Below are positions 1,912-29,873 of a stretch of 64,000 nucleotides of DNA, piece after piece. The notes under the pieces are model-generated. The model did no database searches. It was not told where the DNA came from and saw nothing but the letters and a program-made list of their open reading frames with translations. The stretch lies in assembly GCA_028872875.1 (NCBI GenBank), contig JAGWOC010000002.1, positions 38,574-102,573 of the forward strand, read 5' to 3'. Position 1 is the stretch's first letter. Each line of letters opens with the position of its first letter. The position numbers and the translations under genes are program-made. This DNA is from Chloroflexota bacterium (GTDB lineage Bacteria; Chloroflexota; Dehalococcoidia; DSTF01; JACRBR01).

Positions 1912-3645
1912 CTGGGACAGGTCGACGGCGGACAGATCCTCGTGGGCGTGCTCGTCGCCGCGGGCGTGAAGCGCGTCTTCACGCTGCACGGCGGCCATCT
2001 CGACGCGATCTACCAGGCCGCGGTCGCCGCCGGTCTGCCGCTCGTCGATACCCGCCACGAGCAGGCCGCCGGCCACGCGGCGGACGGCTGGGCGCGCACC
2101 ACCGGCAACGTTGGCGTCGCCATCGTCACCGCGGGCCCCGGCGTCACCGACGTCGTCACCGCTGTCGCCAACGCCTACCTCGACTGCATCCCGCTGCTCG
2201 TCATCGGCGGCCGCAGCCCGCTCATCGACGACGAGCGCCTGCCTCTGCAGGGAGGCTTCAGCCAGGTCGACCTGATGAAGCCGATCACCAAGTGGTCCGC
2301 CACGGTGACGCACCTGCCACGCCTCGCTGACTACACCGCGCAGGCGCTGCGTATCGCCACCAGCGGGCGGCCGGGCCCCGTCTTCCTCGAGGTCCCCGCC
2401 GACGTGCTCTTCGCGCGCATCGATGATGCCCGCGTGCACATCCCGGCCGTGGGCCGCGCCGTCGAGCAGTCCGCGCCGGACGCCGCGGCCGTGCGCGATG
2501 TGCTGACGCGCCTCGCCGCTGCCGAGCGCCCGCTGGTCATGGCGGGCGGCGGCGTCTGGTTCGCCGGCGCGGCCGACGAGCTGCGCGCCTTCGCCGAGCG
2601 CACCGGCATCCCGGTGCTCGCCAACGGCAAGGGCCGCGGCGTCCTCCCCGAAGACCACCCGCTGTCCTGTGGCGGCTTCGCTGCCCTCGCCGGCGTCCGC
2701 CAGGCCGGCGGGCCCGACGTCGTGCTGCTGCTCGGCGCGCGGCTCGGGCTGTTCACCGGCGGCGCCCAGAACTCCTTCATCCCGCCCTCCGCGCACGTCG
2801 TCCAGGTCGACATCGAAGCGGAGGAGATCGGCCGCAACCGCGACATCCAGACCGCCATCGCCGCCGACTGCCGCGCGACGCTGCGCGCCCTCACCGAAGC
2901 TGCGCCCGCCTTCGACTGGCCCGACCGCGCCCTCTGGGCCGGCGCGCTCCGTGCCACGCGCCGCGCGATGGATGCGGCATTCGCGCCGGCCGCCGGCGCG
3001 ACGCCCGTCCACCCGCACCGCCTCGCGCGCGACATCGCGCGCTTCATGGACCGCGCCGATGACGTGCTCGTCGCCGACGGCGGCGAGACCGCGTTCTGGC
3101 TGGAGATGGCGTCCACCGTCCGGCAGGGCGGCCACTGGCTGTCACACGGCTACCTCGGCTGCCTCGGCACCGGCCTGCCGTTCGCCATTGCCGCGCAGAC
3201 GGCGCACCCCGAGAGCCGCGTGCTCTGTCTGACGGGTGACGGATCCGTCGGGCTCAACTTCGCGGAGTTCGACACCATGGCGCGCCACCGGCTCCCCGTC
3301 GTGGTTGTCGTCAACAACGACCAGCAGTGGGGGATGTCGAAGCACGGCCAGGAGCTGATGTACGGCAAGGGCCGCACCGTCGTCTCCGAGCTCGGCCCGA
3401 CGCGCTACGACCTCGCCGCTGCCGGCTTCGGCTGCCACGCCGAGCACATCGAGCGGCCCGAAGACATCGTCCCCGCGCTCGAGCGCGCGTTCGCCTCCGG
3501 CCTCCCGGCGTGCGTCAATGTGCTCACCGACCCGGACATCATCGCGCCCATCACCCTCGCCATGGTCGCCCGCGCCAGCGAGGGCGCAGGCGAGAAGCCC
3601 GGCAGCGTGAACATGCCGTACTACGGCGAGCGCGACGTCAGCTAA
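1912..3645 (+). CDS. ThDP-dependent enzyme (benzaldehyde lyase / 2-hydroxyacyl-CoA lyase / IlvB-like)
   Basis: DTRHEQAAGHAADGWAR, SHGYLGCLG and GDGSVG...NNDQQWG ThDP motifs; probable CTG start after GGAGGT. Confidence 0.88.
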   Translation: MGQVDGGQILVGVLVAAGVKRVFTLHGGHLDAIYQAAVAAGLPLVDTRHEQAAGHAADGWARTTGNVGVAIVTAGPGVTDVVTAVANAYLDCIPLLVIGGRSPLIDDERLPLQGGFSQVDLMKPITKWSATVTHLPRLADYTAQALRIATSGRPGPVFLEVPADVLFARIDDARVHIPAVGRAVEQSAPDAAAVRDVLTRLAAAERPLVMAGGGVWFAGAADELRAFAERTGIPVLANGKGRGVLPEDHPLSCGGFAALAGVRQAGGPDVVLLLGARLGLFTGGAQNSFIPPSAHVVQVDIEAEEIGRNRDIQTAIAADCRATLRALTEAAPAFDWPDRALWAGALRATRRAMDAAFAPAAGATPVHPHRLARDIARFMDRADDVLVADGGETAFWLEMASTVRQGGHWLSHGYLGCLGTGLPFAIAAQTAHPESRVLCLTGDGSVGLNFAEFDTMARHRLPVVVVVNNDQQWGMSKHGQELMYGKGRTVVSELGPTRYDLAAAGFGCHAEHIERPEDIVPALERAFASGLPACVNVLTDPDIIAPITLAMVARASEGAGEKPGSVNMPYYGERDVS

Positions 3646-3693
3646 CGCCTTCGATCCTCGCGCCGCCAGATGTCCGGTAGCCGGAACCAGACA

Positions 3694-3724
3694 CCCCCGT
3701 TCCCTTCAGCGAAGGGGCCGGGGG
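3694..3724. repeat. GC-rich palindromic element between convergent genes
   Basis: CCCCCG-TT-CCCTTC-AGC-GAAGGG-GC-CGGGGG nested inverted repeat. Confidence 0.55.
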
Positions 3725-15031: not shown

Positions 15032-16138
15032 CTAACGCGCTACCGCCTGCATCTTCCGCAGCTTCTCGATGACGGCGTCCGCGACCTGCGAGGTGCCCAC
15101 GGCCGCCGGGTCGTTGCGGTCCGCCTTCATGTCGTACGTGACCGACCTGCCCTCGCGGATCACCTCCGCGAGCGCGCGCTCCAGGCGGTCGCCGGCGTCC
15201 TGCTCGCCCATGTGGCGGAGCATCAGCATGCCGCTGAACATCATCGCCATCGGGTTGACCTTGTTCTGGCCGGCGTACTTCGGGGCGCTGCCGTGGATCG
15301 GCTCGAAGAGCGCGGTCACGTCGCCGATGTTCGCGCCGGGCGCGACGCCGAGGCCGCCGACGAGGCCGGCGCACAGGTCGGAGAGGATGTCGCCGTAGAG
15401 GTTGGGCAGCAGCAGCACGTCGAACCACTCCGGCCTCTGCACGAGCTGCATGCAGAGCGCGTCGACGAGCACCTCTTCGTACTCGATGTCCGGGTACTCC
15501 TTCGCGACCTCCCGCGAGACGGCGTAGAAGAGGCCGTCGGTGTACTTCATGATGTTCGCCTTGCTGATGGCGGACACCTTCTTGCGCCCGTTCTTGCGCG
15601 CGTACTCGAAGGCGTACTTCGCGATGCGGCGCGTCCCGAACTCGGAGATCATCTTGATGCTGATGCCGGCGTCGTCGCGGATCGTGCCCTGCCCGCTCTC
15701 GGCCACCATCGCCGAGAGCTGCGCCACGTACGGTGACCCCTTCTGGAACTCGATACCGGCGTACAGGTCCTCGGTGTTTTCGCGTACGATGACCACGTCG
15801 ACGTTGGCGTCGGCGTAGCGGGTGCGGACGCCGGGATAGACCTTGCACGGCCGCACGCAGGCGTAGAGTTGCAGCGCCTTGCGCAGGGCGACGTTGACGC
15901 TGCGAAAGCCGGTGCCGATCGGCGTCGTCACCGGCCCCTTGATGCCGAGCCTGGTGCTGGCGAGGGAGTCGATCGCCCGCTGGGGGAGCGGCGTCCCCTC
16001 CTTCTCCATCACGTCGACGCCGACGTTCTGCACGTCCCAGTCGAAGGCGACCCCGGTCGCCTCAAGGACGCGCCGTGTCGCCTCGGTGATCTCCGGACCG
16101 GTGCCGTCGCCGGGGATCAGCGTCACTCGGTATGCCAT
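15032..16138 (-). CDS. icd: Isocitrate dehydrogenase (IDH/IPMDH family, probably NAD-type)
   Basis: IPGDGTGPEI, SVNVALRK, RENTEDLY, PNLYGDILSD and EPIHGSAPKY motifs; TCA operon context. Confidence 0.88.
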   Translation of the reverse strand: MAYRVTLIPGDGTGPEITEATRRVLEATGVAFDWDVQNVGVDVMEKEGTPLPQRAIDSLASTRLGIKGPVTTPIGTGFRSVNVALRKALQLYACVRPCKVYPGVRTRYADANVDVVIVRENTEDLYAGIEFQKGSPYVAQLSAMVAESGQGTIRDDAGISIKMISEFGTRRIAKYAFEYARKNGRKKVSAISKANIMKYTDGLFYAVSREVAKEYPDIEYEEVLVDALCMQLVQRPEWFDVLLLPNLYGDILSDLCAGLVGGLGVAPGANIGDVTALFEPIHGSAPKYAGQNKVNPMAMMFSGMLMLRHMGEQDAGDRLERALAEVIREGRSVTYDMKADRNDPAAVGTSQVADAVIEKLRKMQAVAR

Positions 16139-16428
16139 GGCGGGGCTCCTGACATCGGGCGGCGCGATCCGGCGCCGGGCTGCTGTTCCGCGTGCATCAC
16201 GACCGGTCTGTCAGGCGCTGGGGCAAAGGCCCTCAGCGCGATTCCGGCAGGCGGATCACTGGGCCCTTTCCTCGTGGAAGGTCGCTCCGGTCTCGCTCGC
16301 GACTGCTCCCTGGGAGCCCGTTGGGCCCGAGCTGAGGCGTTCTGGAGCAACGTCACTATACACCCGGCCGATCGCGCCAAAACAGGGTCGTTTGGGCGCA
16401 ATTGGACGGACGCCTGGCCCCTGCCCCG

Positions 16429-16455
16429 TACGGGTCTGGCCGCCCGTGCCGATAC
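16429..16455 (+). promoter_or_regulatory. Candidate sigma28-type promoter for the GGDEF gene
   Basis: TACG-N15-GCCGATAC. Confidence 0.55.
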
Positions 16456-16478
16456 TCGTGAGGGTAGGGGGTATCGCT

Positions 16479-17300
16479 GTGAGTGCACGTGCGCCGCGCC
16501 GCATCCGCCTCGTCGAAGGCGGCGGAGAATCCCCGCTGATCACCGCCGAGGGGCGCCCGAGCGAGCGCAAGCGGGGCATCTCGTGGGTGCCGGTGACGCT
16601 GCGGCTGCTCACCATCGCCTGGGGCGGCACGATCATCGCCGCCCTGCTCGACACGTTCGGGCTCGTGCCGCACCTGCCGTTCCTGCTCGCCATCGGCATG
16701 ACCGGCTTCCTCGTCGCGGCGATCTTCGTGCTCACCCGCGACGAGAGCCGGGAGCGCGAGGACGCGGCGGAATCCGACCCCGACGGCGACGCTGCCCACG
16801 ATCTGCTCACCGAGCTGCCGACGTTCAACCACTTCGCCCGCAGGCTCAACGACGAGTTCACCCGCGCCCGCCGCATGGGACGCCCGGTGTCCGTCGTGCT
16901 GGTCGATGTCAACAACCTCACGGCAGTGAACCGGGAATACGGCGTGCGCGCTGGAGACGCCGTGCTCCGCCACGTGGCGCGCACGATCGATGCCACGAAG
17001 CGCTTCAACGACGTGGTGGCCCGGCTCGGGGACGACGAGTTCGGGGTGCTGCTGATCGACACCGGCGAGGAGGGGATCGCCGCCTTCATCGAGCGGCTCG
17101 AAGATCGCCTCGCGCGCGAATCGGCCATGGCCGAGGTCGGTGGCCGCGACGTCTCGCTGTGGGCTGGCGTCTGCTCCGGCAGCGCCTGCGGCACGCCCGA
17201 CATCATGGGTGCTGAGAGGTTGCTGGAGGCGGCGATGGCGAGCCTCAACCAGGCGAAGCAGGACCGTGAACGCCGCCGCCGGATGTGGCTGTCGGCGTAG
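16479..17300 (+). CDS. Membrane-anchored degenerate GGDEF-domain protein
   Basis: Two TM helices, then LTELPTFNHF, VDVNNL, YGVRAGD and RFNDVVARLGDDEF; GTG start inferred. Confidence 0.85.
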   Translation: MSARAPRRIRLVEGGGESPLITAEGRPSERKRGISWVPVTLRLLTIAWGGTIIAALLDTFGLVPHLPFLLAIGMTGFLVAAIFVLTRDESREREDAAESDPDGDAAHDLLTELPTFNHFARRLNDEFTRARRMGRPVSVVLVDVNNLTAVNREYGVRAGDAVLRHVARTIDATKRFNDVVARLGDDEFGVLLIDTGEEGIAAFIERLEDRLARESAMAEVGGRDVSLWAGVCSGSACGTPDIMGAERLLEAAMASLNQAKQDRERRRRMWLSA

Positions 17301-17396: not shown

Positions 17397-17909
17397 TCAG
17401 GCCGCGCGGCCGATGCCAAGGCGGGCGGCAGCCGCGTTCGCGTCCATCACCTCGCCCCGCGACAGAAGCTGGATGAGCGTGCCGATCCGCAGGATCTCCG
17501 CCAGCCCGCCGCCATCGCGGCCACGGTCGGTGAGCGTCTGGTCCAGGCGCGCCTCGTAGCCCGCGCGGAGTTGCGCCCGCAGCTCGCCACATCGGGCTGC
17601 CTCGGTCCAGACCTCGATCAGCACCCGGCCGAGGGCCGCAGGCGGGAGCGAGAGTGCCCCGTCGTCCGCCTCGAACGGCGGCAGGAGCGCGTTGCTGCGG
17701 ATCAGGCGCTCGACCACGCCCGCGAGCACGGATGACTTCGATGGGAAGTGGTGGTAGAGTCCGCCCTTGGAGCAGCCGGCCGCAAGGGCGACGTCGTCCA
17801 TCGACGCCGCGCTGAACCCCTTGAGCGCGAAGACGGCCAGCGCCGCCTGGACGATCTGGTCCCGGGTGCGCTGGGTGCGGAGTGCCTGCCGGTTCGGTTG
17901 GCTCAGCAT
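17397..17909 (-). CDS. TetR/AcrR family regulator (TetR-1)
   Basis: HTH GFSAASMDDVALAAGCSKGGLYHHFPSK. Confidence 0.92.
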   Translation of the reverse strand: MLSQPNRQALRTQRTRDQIVQAALAVFALKGFSAASMDDVALAAGCSKGGLYHHFPSKSSVLAGVVERLIRSNALLPPFEADDGALSLPPAALGRVLIEVWTEAARCGELRAQLRAGYEARLDQTLTDRGRDGGGLAEILRIGTLIQLLSRGEVMDANAAAARLGIGRAA

Positions 17910-17923
17910 ACGTACTATGTGAT

Positions 17924-17950
17924 GTATCGGCCGGGAGGGGCCGATCCGCA
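17924..17950 (-). promoter_or_regulatory. Candidate sigma28-type promoter for TetR-1
   Basis: Minus strand TGCG-N15-GCCGATAC, ending 14 nt before ATG. Confidence 0.5.
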
Positions 17951-18000
17951 GGCGTAGCAGGCCATCCGGCAGGAAATTTTCCGGATCTTGTCAAACCCTC

Positions 18001-18029
18001 TTGACAGGACGCCCCCGCTGGCGCAGAAT
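18001..18029 (+). promoter_or_regulatory. Sigma70-type promoter for the mini-gene
   Basis: TTGACA-N17-CAGAAT. Confidence 0.8.
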
Positions 18030-18031
18030 CA

Positions 18032-18049
18032 ATACCGACGAGTCGGTAT
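18032..18049. promoter_or_regulatory. Operator-like perfect inverted repeat at the predicted TSS
   Basis: ATACCGAC-GA-GTCGGTAT. Confidence 0.65.
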
Positions 18050-18101
18050 AGCTCGGGCCCCGGGTGGCACGAGGGCAACGCAAGGGTCAGGAGGAGTAGC
18101 C

Positions 18102-18128
18102 ATGGTTCAGCGCGCGACTTGGGGCTAG
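18102..18128 (+). CDS. Putative 8-aa micropeptide MVQRATWG
   Basis: AGGAGGAG SD, then ATG GTT CAG CGC GCG ACT TGG GGC TAG, lying between a consensus promoter and a terminator. Confidence 0.6.
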   Translation: MVQRATWG

Positions 18129-18149
18129 GCGCCCCGGAAACAAACCAAG

Positions 18150-18180
18150 GAGGGTCTCTCTGAGGCCCTCTTTTCCATTT
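18150..18180 (+). terminator. Intrinsic terminator, probably bidirectional
   Basis: GAGGGTCTC-TCT-GAGGCCCTC followed by TTTTCCATTTT; A-rich run on the 5' side serves the convergent HD-GYP gene. Confidence 0.8.
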
Positions 18181-18199
18181 TCTCACCGGGGGGGTGCGG

Positions 18200-19711
18200 T
18201 CACGCCGCCTGCTTCGGTGCGGCGGCGGCGTGGTGTTCTGTCGGCGCCTCGTGGTCGGCCATGCGGATCTTGACGATCTCGTCGAAGGCGAGCAGGAAGG
18301 CCTGGACGCAGCGCGGGTCGAACTGGCTGCCGCTGCACTTGATGATCTCGTCCCGCGACACCTCGGCCGAGAGCGCGCGCCGGTAGGGGCGGTCGGACGT
18401 CATCGCGTCGAACGTGTCCGCCAGCACGAAGATGCGCGCGCCGAGCGGGATCTCGTCCGCCAGCAGCCCCAGCGGGTAGCCCTTGCCGTCGAAGCGCTCG
18501 TGGTGCGCCAGGACGAGGCTGGCGGCGCCCGACAGGAACGAGATGTCCTTGAGCATGTCGTGGCCGATCTTCGGGTGGCGGCGCATGTCCACCCACTCCT
18601 CGTCGGTGAGCGGCCCCGGCTTGTGCAGGATCGTGTCGGAGACGCCGATCTTGCCGACGTCGTGCAGGAGGGCGCCCCGCTGCATGTCCAGCCACTCGTC
18701 GGTGCCGGGCGCGATGCCCATGTGGTAGGCGATCTCCATCATGTACTTGGCGACGCGGATCGAGTGGCCCTTCGTCTCGCGGTCGCGCGCGTCGAGCGCG
18801 GAGACGAGGGCCTCGAGCGTGCCGTCGTACGTCCGCCGGAGCTCGTCGGCCATCTGCAGGATGTCGGTGTTCGCCTTCTGGAGGTCCTGGTTCGTCTTCC
18901 GCAGCTCCTCGACATTCTCGGCCGTCTTGTCGATGTACTGCTTCATGGAGAGCCGTACCAAGAGCGGCGGCGCCGCGAAGGCTAGGATGCCGAGCACGCC
19001 CACGCCCGCGTACCCCACCGCCAGCGCCGCGCCCAGAAGTGCCGCCACGACGTAGTGTGGCAGCAGCCAGGCGAAATCGTCGTGCCACACGGCGTAGGTC
19101 TGCCGTCGCGTCGCCAGGCTCGCCGCGGTCGCAACTAGCGTGGTGTTAACCGCGTAATACACGACAACGGTCGCGGCAGTCACCGCGACGAGCAGGGCGG
19201 AGGTCGTCATGTGGCCGCCCATGAGGAGCCAGGCCACGCCCGCGATCGTGAGGTTGGAGAGCGTCACGGACCCGATGTCGAACAGCCGTTTGTACCACGG
19301 CGCGCCCGTCTCGTGGTCAGCCAAGAGGGCGGCGACCGGGCCGACGATGACGGCGCCGGCCGGGCCGAACAGCAGCGCGACCGCGAAGTCGCCGACCATA
19401 CCCAGCGAAATCGTCGTATCCCCGTAGATCGAGATCCGCGTCCTGCCCGCCGCGACGGCGAGCACGCCCAGGATGACAAATCCGGTCAGGTCCGACGTGT
19501 TGAGCTGGGGCGCGAAGTACGCCACTGCCGCCAGCCCCAGCGCGAAGACGAGCAGGACGTAGACCAGCGCCGGCCGCGGCAGGCGCGCCTCGGCCTCTGC
19601 GGCGGCGCCAGGCTGGACCGGCAGCGGGACGACGTTGGACGGCGCGTCGCCGCGCACGGCCCGCGTCTCGTCGCGGCCGTCGGCCGGTTCTTCGAAGGCT
19701 CGGTTCAGCAT
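18200..19711 (-). CDS. HD-GYP c-di-GMP phosphodiesterase with multi-TM N-terminal sensor domain
   Basis: GHSIRVA, LLHDVGKIG, HHERFDGKGYP and DAMTSDRPYR motifs; about 6-7 TM helices N-terminally. Confidence 0.93.
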   Translation of the reverse strand: MLNRAFEEPADGRDETRAVRGDAPSNVVPLPVQPGAAAEAEARLPRPALVYVLLVFALGLAAVAYFAPQLNTSDLTGFVILGVLAVAAGRTRISIYGDTTISLGMVGDFAVALLFGPAGAVIVGPVAALLADHETGAPWYKRLFDIGSVTLSNLTIAGVAWLLMGGHMTTSALLVAVTAATVVVYYAVNTTLVATAASLATRRQTYAVWHDDFAWLLPHYVVAALLGAALAVGYAGVGVLGILAFAAPPLLVRLSMKQYIDKTAENVEELRKTNQDLQKANTDILQMADELRRTYDGTLEALVSALDARDRETKGHSIRVAKYMMEIAYHMGIAPGTDEWLDMQRGALLHDVGKIGVSDTILHKPGPLTDEEWVDMRRHPKIGHDMLKDISFLSGAASLVLAHHERFDGKGYPLGLLADEIPLGARIFVLADTFDAMTSDRPYRRALSAEVSRDEIIKCSGSQFDPRCVQAFLLAFDEIVKIRMADHEAPTEHHAAAAPKQAA

Positions 19712-19795: not shown

Positions 19796-20521
19796 TCAGG
19801 CGGCCTGGTCGATCTCGGCGGCGAGCTGGCGCCGGAGCGTCGCCAGGATGCGCTTGTGAAGCTGGCAGACCCGGGACTCCGAGAGCCCGAGCATCTCGCC
19901 GATGACGTGGAACGGCCTGGATTCAGCGTATCGGAGCTTCAGGATGGCCCGGTCTCGCGCGTTCAGGTCGTGCAGCACCACATCGAGCATCGCAAGCGAG
20001 GCATTGTGGTCGGCCGCCTTGGCGGGGTCACCGGACTCGTCTTCGTCCACCGGGTCCAGCGCGGGGCCGTTCTCGCCACCCCGGTCCTGGAGCGCGTGCT
20101 CCAGCGAGATGAACTTCGAGTTGGCGTGGCGCAGGATGCCGTGGAGCTGGTCCGCAGGCATGCCGAGGCGGACGGCGACCTCCTTCGTCGTCGGCCAGCG
20201 GCCGAGCGATGCCGCGAGCTCCTGCGACGCGTGCTCGACCTCCCGCGTGCTCTTGCGCAGCGAGCGCGGCAACGGGTCCATCTTGCGGATGGCGTCCAGG
20301 ATTGAGCCGCGGATGCGCCGCACGGCGAAGCTCGCGAAGCTCGTGCCGCGCTCGGCGTCGAAGGCGTCGATCGCCTGGATCAGGCCCTCGGTGCCGTAGG
20401 CGAGCGCGTCCTCGCGGTCGAGCCCCAGGGTCTTCTGGTTGTCCGTGGACATGCGGCTGACGACGAAGGCCACGAGCGGCATGTGCCGCATGATCATCTC
20501 CTGGCGGTCTGGACTGCGCAT
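19796..20521 (-). CDS. fliA: FliA/WhiG (sigma28-family) RNA polymerase sigma factor
   Basis: GLIQAIDAFDAERGTSFASFAVRRIRGSILDAIRKMDPLPRSLR and IGEMLGLSESRVCQLH; GGGGGAG SD 6 nt before ATG 20521. Confidence 0.9.
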   Translation of the reverse strand: MRSPDRQEMIMRHMPLVAFVVSRMSTDNQKTLGLDREDALAYGTEGLIQAIDAFDAERGTSFASFAVRRIRGSILDAIRKMDPLPRSLRKSTREVEHASQELAASLGRWPTTKEVAVRLGMPADQLHGILRHANSKFISLEHALQDRGGENGPALDPVDEDESGDPAKAADHNASLAMLDVVLHDLNARDRAILKLRYAESRPFHVIGEMLGLSESRVCQLHKRILATLRRQLAAEIDQAA

Positions 20522-20617: not shown

Positions 20618-20697
20618 CTTCGGCGGCCCGGCCATCCGCGCGTACGGCGGACCCGTGGCTTTGCGTCCTCGCCTTTCGGCGAGTTTGCCCTGTCGGA
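20618..20697 (-). ncRNA. c-di-GMP-I (GEMM-I) riboswitch aptamer
   Basis: Minus strand CGACAGGGCAAACTCGCC-GAAA-GGCGAGGACGCAAAGCCACGGGTCC...GGATGGCCGGGCCGCCGAAG, matching the canonical GGGCAAAC / GAAA / GACGCAAAGCC pattern. Confidence 0.92.
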
Positions 20698-20845
20698 ACC
20701 TCTGACGATGACATCCAGGGCATCCTGCCGGGCCACGGGCGAGTCGTTCGCCCTCCATCAGCCTTAACGCTGCCGGGGGCCATGTGTTACAGGCCGGGGG
20801 GATCTTTTTTCGTCTGGGCGCAATGTGGGAGATTGTCAAGGGGTA

Positions 20846-29722: not shown

Positions 29723-29730
29723 TTCCCCAA

Positions 29731-29860
29731 ACCGCATAAGGCCGAATCCGCGGACGCGGAGCGGGGGAACCATCGGTGGGGTGAATCTCGCGCGACGGCG
29801 CGAGTAGGTCAGCCTTCTCAGACCGAACCCGACAGCTAACCTCGCAGGCACGTGAGAGGC
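29731..29860 (+). ncRNA. c-di-AMP (ydaO/yuaA) riboswitch
   Basis: GCCGAATCC...GAGCGGGGGAACCA...TGGGGTGAATC...TAGG...CCGAACCCGACAGCTAACCTCGCAGGC, matching the ydaO consensus blocks. Confidence 0.92.
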
Positions 29861-29873
29861 GACGACGCTCGAT

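Follow-up and report, generated by a model that had tools for sequence, protein, structure and literature searches.

A predicted TetR-gated gene for a six- to eight-residue peptide in a c-di-GMP/sigma-factor module of Chloroflexota

Genes of only a few codons escape annotation. Here we describe such a gene in a stretch of 64,000 nucleotides (hereafter the window) from a Chloroflexota bacterium (contig JAGWOC010000002.1). It sits in the intergenic region 17910-18199, with the gene for a TetR-family regulator (TetR1) on one side and that for an HD-GYP phosphodiesterase on the other, and its open reading frame (ORF) of eight codons encodes MVQRATWG. Comparison with related loci indicates that this mini-gene is almost certainly a real peptide gene. 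We propose, with a probability of roughly 0.6, that it is an independently transcribed, TetR-gated, high-output gene whose product, a peptide of 6-8 residues that undergoes no processing, acts in trans within a module of cyclic di-GMP (c-di-GMP) and sigma-28 genes. The proposed mature core is x-F-R-[V/I/L]-x-W, with V-Q-R-A-T-W-G as the variant of the window clade. Below we document the anatomy, the conservation and the coding signature of the mini-gene, and the association of its operator with TetR genes.

The mini-gene is conserved at 34 loci

We compared 34 loci with enough sequence. These were the window, 16 genome loci (L001-L016) retrieved by their TetR1 protein (48-92% identical), 12 metagenome loci, and five loci obtained by exact look-up of TetR1 homologues. 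The query of the metagenome scan contained only the -10 and operator pattern, without any ORF. It returned 114 stretches, 80 of which were fetched; 12 of these 80 have a GAG/GGG-centred operator, and all 12 carry both a TetR1 orthologue and the mini-ORF. The unit is likewise present at all five exact-look-up loci. The 34 loci come from Chloroflexota/Dehalococcoidia genomes and from metagenomes, and each encodes a TetR1 orthologue (45-92% identical). The nearest relatives of the window are metagenome-assembled genomes of uncultivated Chloroflexota/Dehalococcoidia. A search at E ≤ 1e-10 puts the wider TetR1 family at 272 protein clusters or more, all of them from a similar source, the same clade of uncultivated Chloroflexota.

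The complete layout is kept at all 34 loci, which together hold 36 ORF copies and 17 peptide variants. It begins with a TTGACA-N17/18-TATAA promoter, the palindrome ATACCGAC-NN-GTCGG and a leader of 35-75 nt, which varies in both sequence and length among the loci. These are followed by AGGAGG, an ORF that starts with ATG and has 6-8 codons, a hairpin of 10-20 bp and the convergent HD-GYP gene. The single-locus statistics of these elements, from promoter and terminator scans of the window, are modest; this recurrence is the decisive point. An earlier, sequence-only reading of the window had proposed a stand-alone transcription unit with a translated mini-ORF, too short for annotation pipelines. 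The 34 loci support this proposal, and the mini-ORF is in none of the public-record gene calls for them.

The conserved product is a short peptide

All 36 ORF copies start with ATG, which lies 5-12 nt from the end of the GGAG of the Shine-Dalgarno (SD) sequence. Orthologues that have lost the ATG, the frame or the SD spacing, for which the sequence-only reading had advised looking, were found at none of the 34 loci. The encoded peptides share the pattern M-(T/V/A)-F-R-[VILA]-x-W, with a core of F/Q-R-[VILA]-x-W when the window clade is included. Variants include MFRIQW, MFRINW, MFRVQW, MFRVSW, MTFRVTW, MTFRVQW, MAFRITW and MVFRVGW, while the window clade (the window, L001 and L002) has MVQRATWG or MVQRVSWG. 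The aligned mini-ORFs all encode the Arg, and they have a polar residue at position x. The last residue is Trp in 33 copies and Gly in the remaining three, all from the window clade. The C-terminal Trp-Gly had been suggested as a modification site; this idea fails because the Gly is clade-specific, and the conserved end is Trp. In the seven-codon forms the second residue is small (T, V or A), and loss of the Met would yield a hexapeptide in all forms. MccA, a peptide of comparable size, is reported to retain its N-formyl group (PMC6495379), which makes the processing of such short peptides uncertain.

Codon-level conservation, a check that the sequence-only reading had also named, was evident from the variation between the copies. 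Column entropies at codon positions 1/2/3 were 0.41/0.59/1.10 for the Phe, 0.18/0/1.05 for the Arg, 1.14/0.31/1.68 for the Val/Ile and 0/0/0 for the Trp, compared with 1.4-1.9 bits per column outside the ORF, both before it (leader and SD-ATG spacer) and after its stop. The variation thus has a three-base period, with positions 1 and 2 of the Phe, Arg and Trp codons nearly fixed and position 3 variable. The Arg is encoded by CGC, CGG, CGA, CGT and AGG, including a two-base switch from CGC to AGG, and Ser at the variable position is encoded by TCC, TCT and AGC. The flanks of the ORF change through indels that are not multiples of three. Stop codon usage is also distinct: the 36 copies end in TAA (28) or TAG (8) and never in TGA, whereas the 33 ordinary genes of the window use TGA 19, TAG 11 and TAA 3 times. 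A longer ORF at the mini-gene was sought in all frames across the loci and rejected, as no longer or other-frame ORF is conserved.

Two further features concern the product. The peptide MFRIQW is identical across the deepest split of the TetR1 tree (a branch of 1.9 changes per site, about 45% identity), which means that the peptide evolves more slowly than its repressor. Furthermore, one sub-lineage, seen in L112 (oriented 1938-2250) and L195 (2560-2840, minus strand), has the SD+MFRIQW unit twice in tandem on one transcript, about 105 nt apart. The spacer between these units has diverged, and a synonymous CGG/CGC change distinguishes the copies. The presence of two units points to product dosage. 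Synonymous turnover of the Arg and Ser codons, the three-base period and the tandem SD+ORF copies together indicate that the selected product is the peptide and not an RNA seed.

These observations bear on the reading of the unit as a non-coding small RNA, or as a bidirectional terminator with a chance promoter, in which the ORF would be incidental. The modest single-locus statistics would fit such a reading, as would a hairpin that probably terminates the HD-GYP gene too and 5' leader hairpins that involve an operator half-site. On the other hand, ATG, frame, SD spacing and stop are kept in 36 of 36 copies despite the non-triplet indels in the flanks, and neither codon-periodic variation nor the CGN/AGG and TCN/AGC switches are expected of an RNA seed. 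Permissive and gathering Rfam searches gave only chance matches in the mini-gene unit, and the fold stability of the whole transcript equals that of shuffled sequences (z = -0.03). The sequence-only reading had offered an RNA acting by titration or base-pairing through its exposed AGGAGG as an alternative; this is disfavoured because conservation follows codons rather than nucleotides. We consider a non-coding role the least credible of the explanations discussed here, and the comparative data have largely refuted it already.

Anatomy of the unit in the window

The elements that the sequence-only reading had listed for the window (TTGACA-N17-CAGAAT, palindrome, SD, eight-codon ORF and terminator) are all present. 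It had missed the operator role of the palindrome. The features of the locus are as follows.

17397-17909, minus strand: TetR1 gene, 170 aa (TetR_N PF00440, E = 3e-15), divergent from the mini-gene
17924-17931, minus strand: GCCGATAC box (plus strand GTATCGGC), 15 nt 5' of the TetR1 ATG, resembling a FliA/WhiG-type -10
17972-17994, plus strand: AT-rich patch GGAAATTTTCC and TTGTCAA box, the box forming an inverted repeat with the -35 hexamer
18001-18029, plus strand: sigma-70-type promoter from the promoter scan, TTGACA (18001-18006), N17, CAGAAT (18024-18029)
18032-18049, plus strand: perfect 18-bp palindrome ATACCGAC-GA-GTCGGTAT, overlapping the predicted start site; TetR1 operator in our reading
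18036-18183, plus strand: predicted transcript of about 145 nt, its start placed from the -10 and its end from the terminator
18089-18096, plus strand: Shine-Dalgarno sequence AGGAGGAG, 5 nt 5' of the ATG
18102-18128, plus strand: mini-ORF ATG GTT CAG CGC GCG ACT TGG GGC TAG, eight codons, MVQRATWG
18121-18135, plus strand: small hairpin GGGGC-TAGGC-GCCCC, read from the sequence, covering the Gly and stop codons
18147-18183, plus strand: intrinsic terminator from the terminator scan, with a 12-bp stem (hairpin 18147-18173) and a 3-nt loop, then TCCATTTTCT; A-rich 5' flank and T-rich 3' flank
18200-19711, minus strand: HD-GYP phosphodiesterase gene (Pfam HD_5, E = 7e-31), convergent with the mini-gene

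The window has a G+C content of 70.7%. The promoter scan found one site in 2.5 kb, compared with 0.1 expected in shuffles, and the palindrome is the only copy within the 64 kb, where 0.13 are expected when up to three mismatches are allowed. Elsewhere in the window the F/Q-R-x-x-W motif gave only chance matches, in non-genic frames. The small hairpin at 18121-18135 underlies a chance Rfam match to eiav_FSE, and other loci often have a C-rich run or a small hairpin behind the stop. A run of at least four C within 1-5 nt 3' of the stop is common, both in the window (18129-18140) and in orthologues (TAAGCCCC, TAACCCC, TAGGCGCCCC); at several loci it can pair with GGGG(C) of the leader, enclosing SD and ORF.

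The promoter is linked to TetR1 by a predicted operator

At all loci, TTGACA and GTATAA/TATAAA lie at a constant distance from the palindrome, which occurs once per orthologous locus and always 1-2 nt 3' of the -10. Judging from this association, the palindrome is the predicted operator of TetR1. A wider set of sites is consistent with this assignment. About 68 of the 80 fetched metagenome loci (L081-L160) represent a lower-GC sister lineage with the same palindrome, centred on C[CT][AG]G. In this lineage the palindrome lies between a TTGACA/TATAAA promoter and the lineage's own 194-aa TetR gene, which is followed by NAD-epimerase/SDR and membrane genes. The helix-turn-helix (HTH) DNA-binding region of the sister TetR is 46% identical to that of TetR1. 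Since the palindrome precedes a related TetR gene in the sister lineage, the site seems to travel with this TetR subfamily. The sister-lineage palindromes would form a wider operator family, through which the sister lineage putatively autoregulates its own TetR gene. The sister form, ATACCGAC-C[CT][AG]G-GTCGGTAT, is often extended to TATAAACATACCGAC..GTCGGTATGTTTATA (for example L087 8020-8650 and L135 5636-6250).

In the lineage of the window, the mini-gene is the sole local target of the operator. With the palindrome at +1 read as the operator of the divergent TetR1, the mini-gene unit would be the dedicated target of that repressor. The AlphaFold2 model of TetR1 (pLDDT 87) has eight helices in a TetR fold. 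Upstream of TetR1, most loci have the motif GCCGAT-N2-TTCACATAGGA-N3-5-ATG, in full GCCGAT(A/C/G)N followed by TTCACATAGGA. This motif resembles the -10 element of a sigma-28 (FliA/WhiG-type) promoter and would place TetR1 under the neighbouring sigma factor. On the mini-gene side, the arrangement TTGTCAA-N5-7-TTGACA recurs at many orthologous loci, and the AT-rich patch and TTGTCAA box could serve as an UP element or bind a second regulator.

A strong promoter gated by a TetR protein could also serve another purpose. TetR repressors typically gate responses to toxic compounds, and massive translation of six codons could act on the translation apparatus itself, with TetR1 as a drug or stress sensor. 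The ribosome or tRNA would be the target, either through clearance of drugs from the exit tunnel, as with 'resistance pentapeptides', or through sequestration of peptidyl-tRNA, as with the lambda bar minigenes. The very strong promoter, SD and ATG joined to a very short ORF are in keeping with this, as is a last sense codon that is the single Trp codon (33 copies; Gly is last in three). According to the work of Tenson and Mankin, a chain of six residues reportedly spans the upper exit tunnel. Against such a role, the peptide is not known to resemble the published resistance-peptide consensus, the unit is embedded in a c-di-GMP/sigma module without adjacent resistance genes, and the TetR1 promoter is sigma-28-like, which suggests developmental rather than drug control. 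We regard a ribosome- or tRNA-directed minigene as improbable.

No co-directional gene follows the terminator

In all 29 loci analysed, a hairpin of 10-20 bp lies 16-31 nt (median 22) after the stop codon of the mini-ORF, and the stop codon of the HD-GYP gene lies a median of 24 nt beyond it. The stem sequences differ among loci. A-rich and T-rich arms flank the stems, a pattern of shared bidirectional terminators, and the terminator probably works in both directions and serves the HD-GYP gene too. Between terminator and HD-GYP gene, L016 carries a tandem repeat of about 40 nt, GTAGCGCGGGC(C)TTCAGCCCG(T/C)GTCGTC(G/T)TGTGCCACC, roughly 100-250 nt 3' of the mini-ORF (reverse complement of about 3560-3700), which looks like a REP-like insertion.

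The sequence-only reading had held that a unit pointing into a convergent gene cannot be an attenuator leader. This agrees with the comparative data: none of the 34 loci has a co-directional gene 3' of the mini-gene, and wherever the contig reaches, the next gene is the convergent HD-GYP gene. Given the absence of a co-directional gene and the variable spacing between stop and hairpin, attenuation appears unlikely. A spacing of 16-31 nt also varies too much for direct action on the stem by a ribosome at the stop codon. Minimum free energy (MFE) folds and a MAFFT alignment of the leaders, made without building a covariance model, revealed no shared alternative helix or antiterminator pairing. 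They did show a recurrent 5' hairpin between the right half of the operator and a downstream CCGAC-like repeat, as well as scattered local hairpins.

A related possibility is that the ORF is a cis-acting sensor. Whether transcription terminates at the hairpin, or how stable the transcript is, would then depend on the nascent F-R-V-x-W peptide or on ribosomes occupying the tiny ORF. The output of the sensor would be antisense or convergent transcription into the HD-GYP gene, which is invariably the next gene. Ribosome binding acts in this manner at mccA, where it controls the terminator behind a seven-codon ORF and stabilizes the RNA (PMC4231749). All loci have a short ORF followed by a hairpin, and amino-acid-level conservation is also typical of arrest peptides, and leaders of six residues are reported, MsrDL being an example (PMC10314930). 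Conversely, a co-directional gene is present at 0 of 34 loci, the stop-to-hairpin distance ranges over 16-31 nt, and conserved alternative pairing was not found in the folds and alignment. The strong preference for TAA and the absence of TGA argue for quick release over arrest at termination. Tandem duplication of SD and ORF is hard to reconcile with a single switch, and the A-rich and T-rich flanks of the hairpin resemble those of a shared bidirectional terminator. We therefore think a cis-acting sensor unlikely.

The mini-gene lies in a c-di-GMP/sigma-factor module

Gene order is constant in the 16 genome loci: TetR2, a divergent FliA/WhiG-type sigma gene, HD-GYP, the mini-gene, TetR1 and a convergent GGDEF gene. 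Within this block the mini-gene is convergent to HD-GYP and divergent from TetR1. In front of the sigma gene lies a riboswitch of the c-di-GMP-I-GGC class (RF03167, 69.1 bits, window 20618-20698, minus strand); this class is not the standard c-di-GMP-I, and its ligand specificity may differ. A strong c-di-AMP (ydaO) riboswitch match of 94.8 bits was found elsewhere in the window (29730-29865, plus strand).

The N-terminal half of the HD-GYP protein (18842-19711, minus strand; 608-2110 in L198) has at least five hydrophobic segments, forming a multi-pass membrane domain with weak Pfam matches to MASE9 and to S components of ECF transporters. It is probably an uncharacterised membrane sensor domain. 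The GGDEF ORF at 15879-17300 (plus strand) is over-extended: the alignment with its orthologues begins only at about residue 190-200, and the gene in public calls has 239-277 aa. The true gene probably starts near 16479 and encodes two transmembrane segments and the GGDEF domain. The Pfam families of the neighbours are limited to sigma, HD, TetR, GGDEF, FMN_red, HflX and ApbA, and a conserved neighbour of 181 aa has no Pfam match. The Pfam lists contain no TPR or Rgg-like gene in the conserved block.

Three regulators of the module end in Ala-Ala, namely TetR1 (...GRAA, 17397-17399), HD-GYP (...KQAA, 18200-18202) and the FliA/WhiG sigma factor (...DQAA, 19796-19798). All of 51 TetR1 orthologues keep the final Ala, and the penultimate one is at least 90% conserved. 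These shared ends may represent an ssrA-like, ClpXP-type degron on the three regulators. The L195 counterparts of the three proteins end in ...VAA, ...LAA and ...LAA.

The content of the block also bears on whether the peptide is the precursor of a modified natural product, as are MccA, PqqA and the crocagin precursor, tailored in this case by enzymes encoded elsewhere. The heptapeptide MccA shows that precursors can be this short and have a terminator directly behind the ORF (PMC4231749, PMC6495379), and the C-terminal Trp of the mini-gene peptide could serve as a modification site. Nevertheless, by Pfam the conserved block lacks MccB/ThiF-like, radical-SAM, peptidase and export genes, and the C-terminal residue is Trp or Gly rather than Asn. 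Moreover, the core is kept across a TetR split of 45% identity, whereas MccA sequences are reported not to be conserved (PMC6495379). A role as modified precursor seems very improbable.

A proposed role for the peptide in trans

We propose the following mechanism for a TetR-gated peptide that acts in trans. The divergent TetR1 would bind the 18-bp palindrome over the start site and hold the promoter off. Release of TetR1 by a ligand, or its depletion, would then lead to high expression. High output is expected from the consensus -35, the good -10, the AT-rich upstream patch, the consensus SD, the ATG and the TAA/TAG stop. The transcript of about 145 nt would be translated repeatedly, as reported for the seven-codon mccA ORF, which is translated reiteratively (PMC6495379). 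The peptide, as the selected product, would act as a small effector of the surrounding module, which consists of the c-di-GMP-riboswitch-controlled FliA/WhiG sigma factor, HD-GYP, TetR1 and GGDEF.

Its likeliest direct partners would be TetR1 itself, as a feedback ligand, or the c-di-GMP enzymes. By analogy with leaderless communication peptides (LCPs), which pair with an adjacent regulator, TetR1 is a natural candidate receptor. In an engineered system the oligopeptide Tip induces TetR (PMC1919500), and short peptides with Arg and aromatic residues can bind c-di-GMP (PMC7382256). We consider TetR1, the HD-GYP and GGDEF proteins and c-di-GMP itself equally open candidate partners. The HD-GYP sensor, which the sequence-only reading had put forward as the target of the peptide, is thus one of several candidates.

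Several points weigh against this proposal. The loci are mutually related, so the 34 of 34 loci and the 28 TAA stops are not independent events, and the coding argument is carried by the synonymous switches and the indel-rich flanks. Searches of sequencing runs matched only DNA metagenomes (mine drainage, sediment) and no RNA-seq run. Sequence-specific conservation is also expected of a cis-acting arrest peptide. The effector domain of TetR1 is reduced to about 105 aa, and sequence and fold searches of the PDB for hints of its ligand matched only the generic TetR fold or HTH (TM 0.35-0.59) and were uninformative. By Pfam, the conserved block contains no transporter, peptidase or modifying enzyme. 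Finally, the block is syntenic in every genome seen, and the linkage to HD-GYP may mean shared ancestry rather than function.

A bolder extension is that the TetR-gated, unprocessed hexapeptide (x-F-R-V/I-x-W) constitutes a new class of signal, an intracellular or possibly intercellular messenger of the c-di-GMP/sigma-28 switch. It could be the ligand of its own TetR, modulate HD-GYP or GGDEF directly, or use its Arg and aromatic residues to bind c-di-GMP. We put this forward tentatively, as its odds are well short of even. Among stand-alone genes for ultrashort peptides, there is nonetheless a fair chance that this one belongs to a new signalling class. To our knowledge, very few stand-alone genes of eight codons or fewer have been described, examples being mccA and the LCP genes of Firmicutes. 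The mini-gene is among the shortest stand-alone genes known. If the signalling reading is right, its six-codon form would also be shorter than any other stand-alone protein-coding gene that has a promoter, an operator and a terminator of its own. An entire clade of uncultivated Chloroflexota has kept the mini-gene, with a dedicated (predicted) repressor and in a compact module of c-di-GMP and sigma-factor genes. Should the peptide be an effector, leaderless peptide signalling would no longer be confined to Firmicutes or to RRNPPA receptors, and nature would offer a case in which a TetR regulator is coupled to a peptide. The parts are small: a 170-aa repressor, an 18-bp operator and a hexapeptide. 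We know of no natural peptide-TetR pair, and the mini-gene would provide the first if the peptide is the ligand of TetR1.

Comparison with known systems

A literature search found no paper on a TetR-controlled gene for an ultrasmall peptide. Several known systems share parts of the layout. A close parallel in organization is that of the LCPs of Firmicutes (e.g. SIP) with their receptor RopB, where an ORF of eight amino acids is divergent from the receptor gene and a target gene is convergent (PMC10518010). As in these loci, the ultrasmall ORF of the mini-gene corresponds directly to the mature peptide, without leader or processing sites. The peptide gene is divergent from that of its regulator, the (here predicted) regulator site lies inside the peptide promoter, the gene downstream is convergent, as it often is for LCPs, and annotation pipelines miss the ORF. 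The two differ in that the regulator of the mini-gene is a 170-aa TetR repressor, whereas that of LCPs is an RRNPPA/TPR activator. The mini-gene peptide has 6-8 residues and is not purely hydrophobic, while LCPs mostly have 8-10 residues and are highly hydrophobic (PMC10518010). Its sequence is highly conserved across the clade, in contrast to LCPs, which have diversified into lineage-specific 'codes', and its phylum is Chloroflexota.

The microcin C precursor gene mccA (PMC4231749, PMC6495379) and the mini-gene both have a stand-alone-looking ORF of about seven codons, a strong SD and, immediately after the ORF, a terminator hairpin. At mccA the short transcript is abundant and is translated reiteratively, as would be expected of the mini-gene, and the length of the peptide is conserved in both. 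However, mccBCDE follow mccA co-directionally, whereas the next gene after the mini-gene is convergent and no MccB-like gene is nearby. MccA must end in Asn for adenylation by MccB, while the mini-gene peptide ends in Trp (or Gly). In addition, the mini-gene conserves its sequence and MccA only its length.

Attenuator leaders such as those of Erm/Cat and the hexapeptide MsrDL (PMC10314930) also combine an ORF of 6-9 codons, a sequence-specific peptide and a terminator hairpin. The mini-gene differs from these in that it has no downstream regulated gene (34 of 34 loci), variable hairpin spacing and no antiterminator that we could find in the folds and alignment of its leaders. It also has its own (predicted) repressor-controlled promoter, and a tandem duplicate in one lineage.

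The divergent repressor gene and the palindromic operator over the start site of the target recall the tetR/tetA type of control (PMC8966031). The target here is a gene of 6-8 codons rather than a pump or an enzyme. The artificial oligopeptide Tip occupies the effector pocket of TetR and thereby induces the repressor (PMC1919500). The repeated, tiny and near-identical ORFs on one transcript in L112 and L195 are reminiscent of insect tal/pri/mlpt, although these (bioRxiv 10.1101/376111) are eukaryotic and encode peptides of at least 11 residues, without relationship by descent. Judged by its layout, the mini-gene unit appears to work like an LCP locus or the mccA unit and to be a member of neither family.

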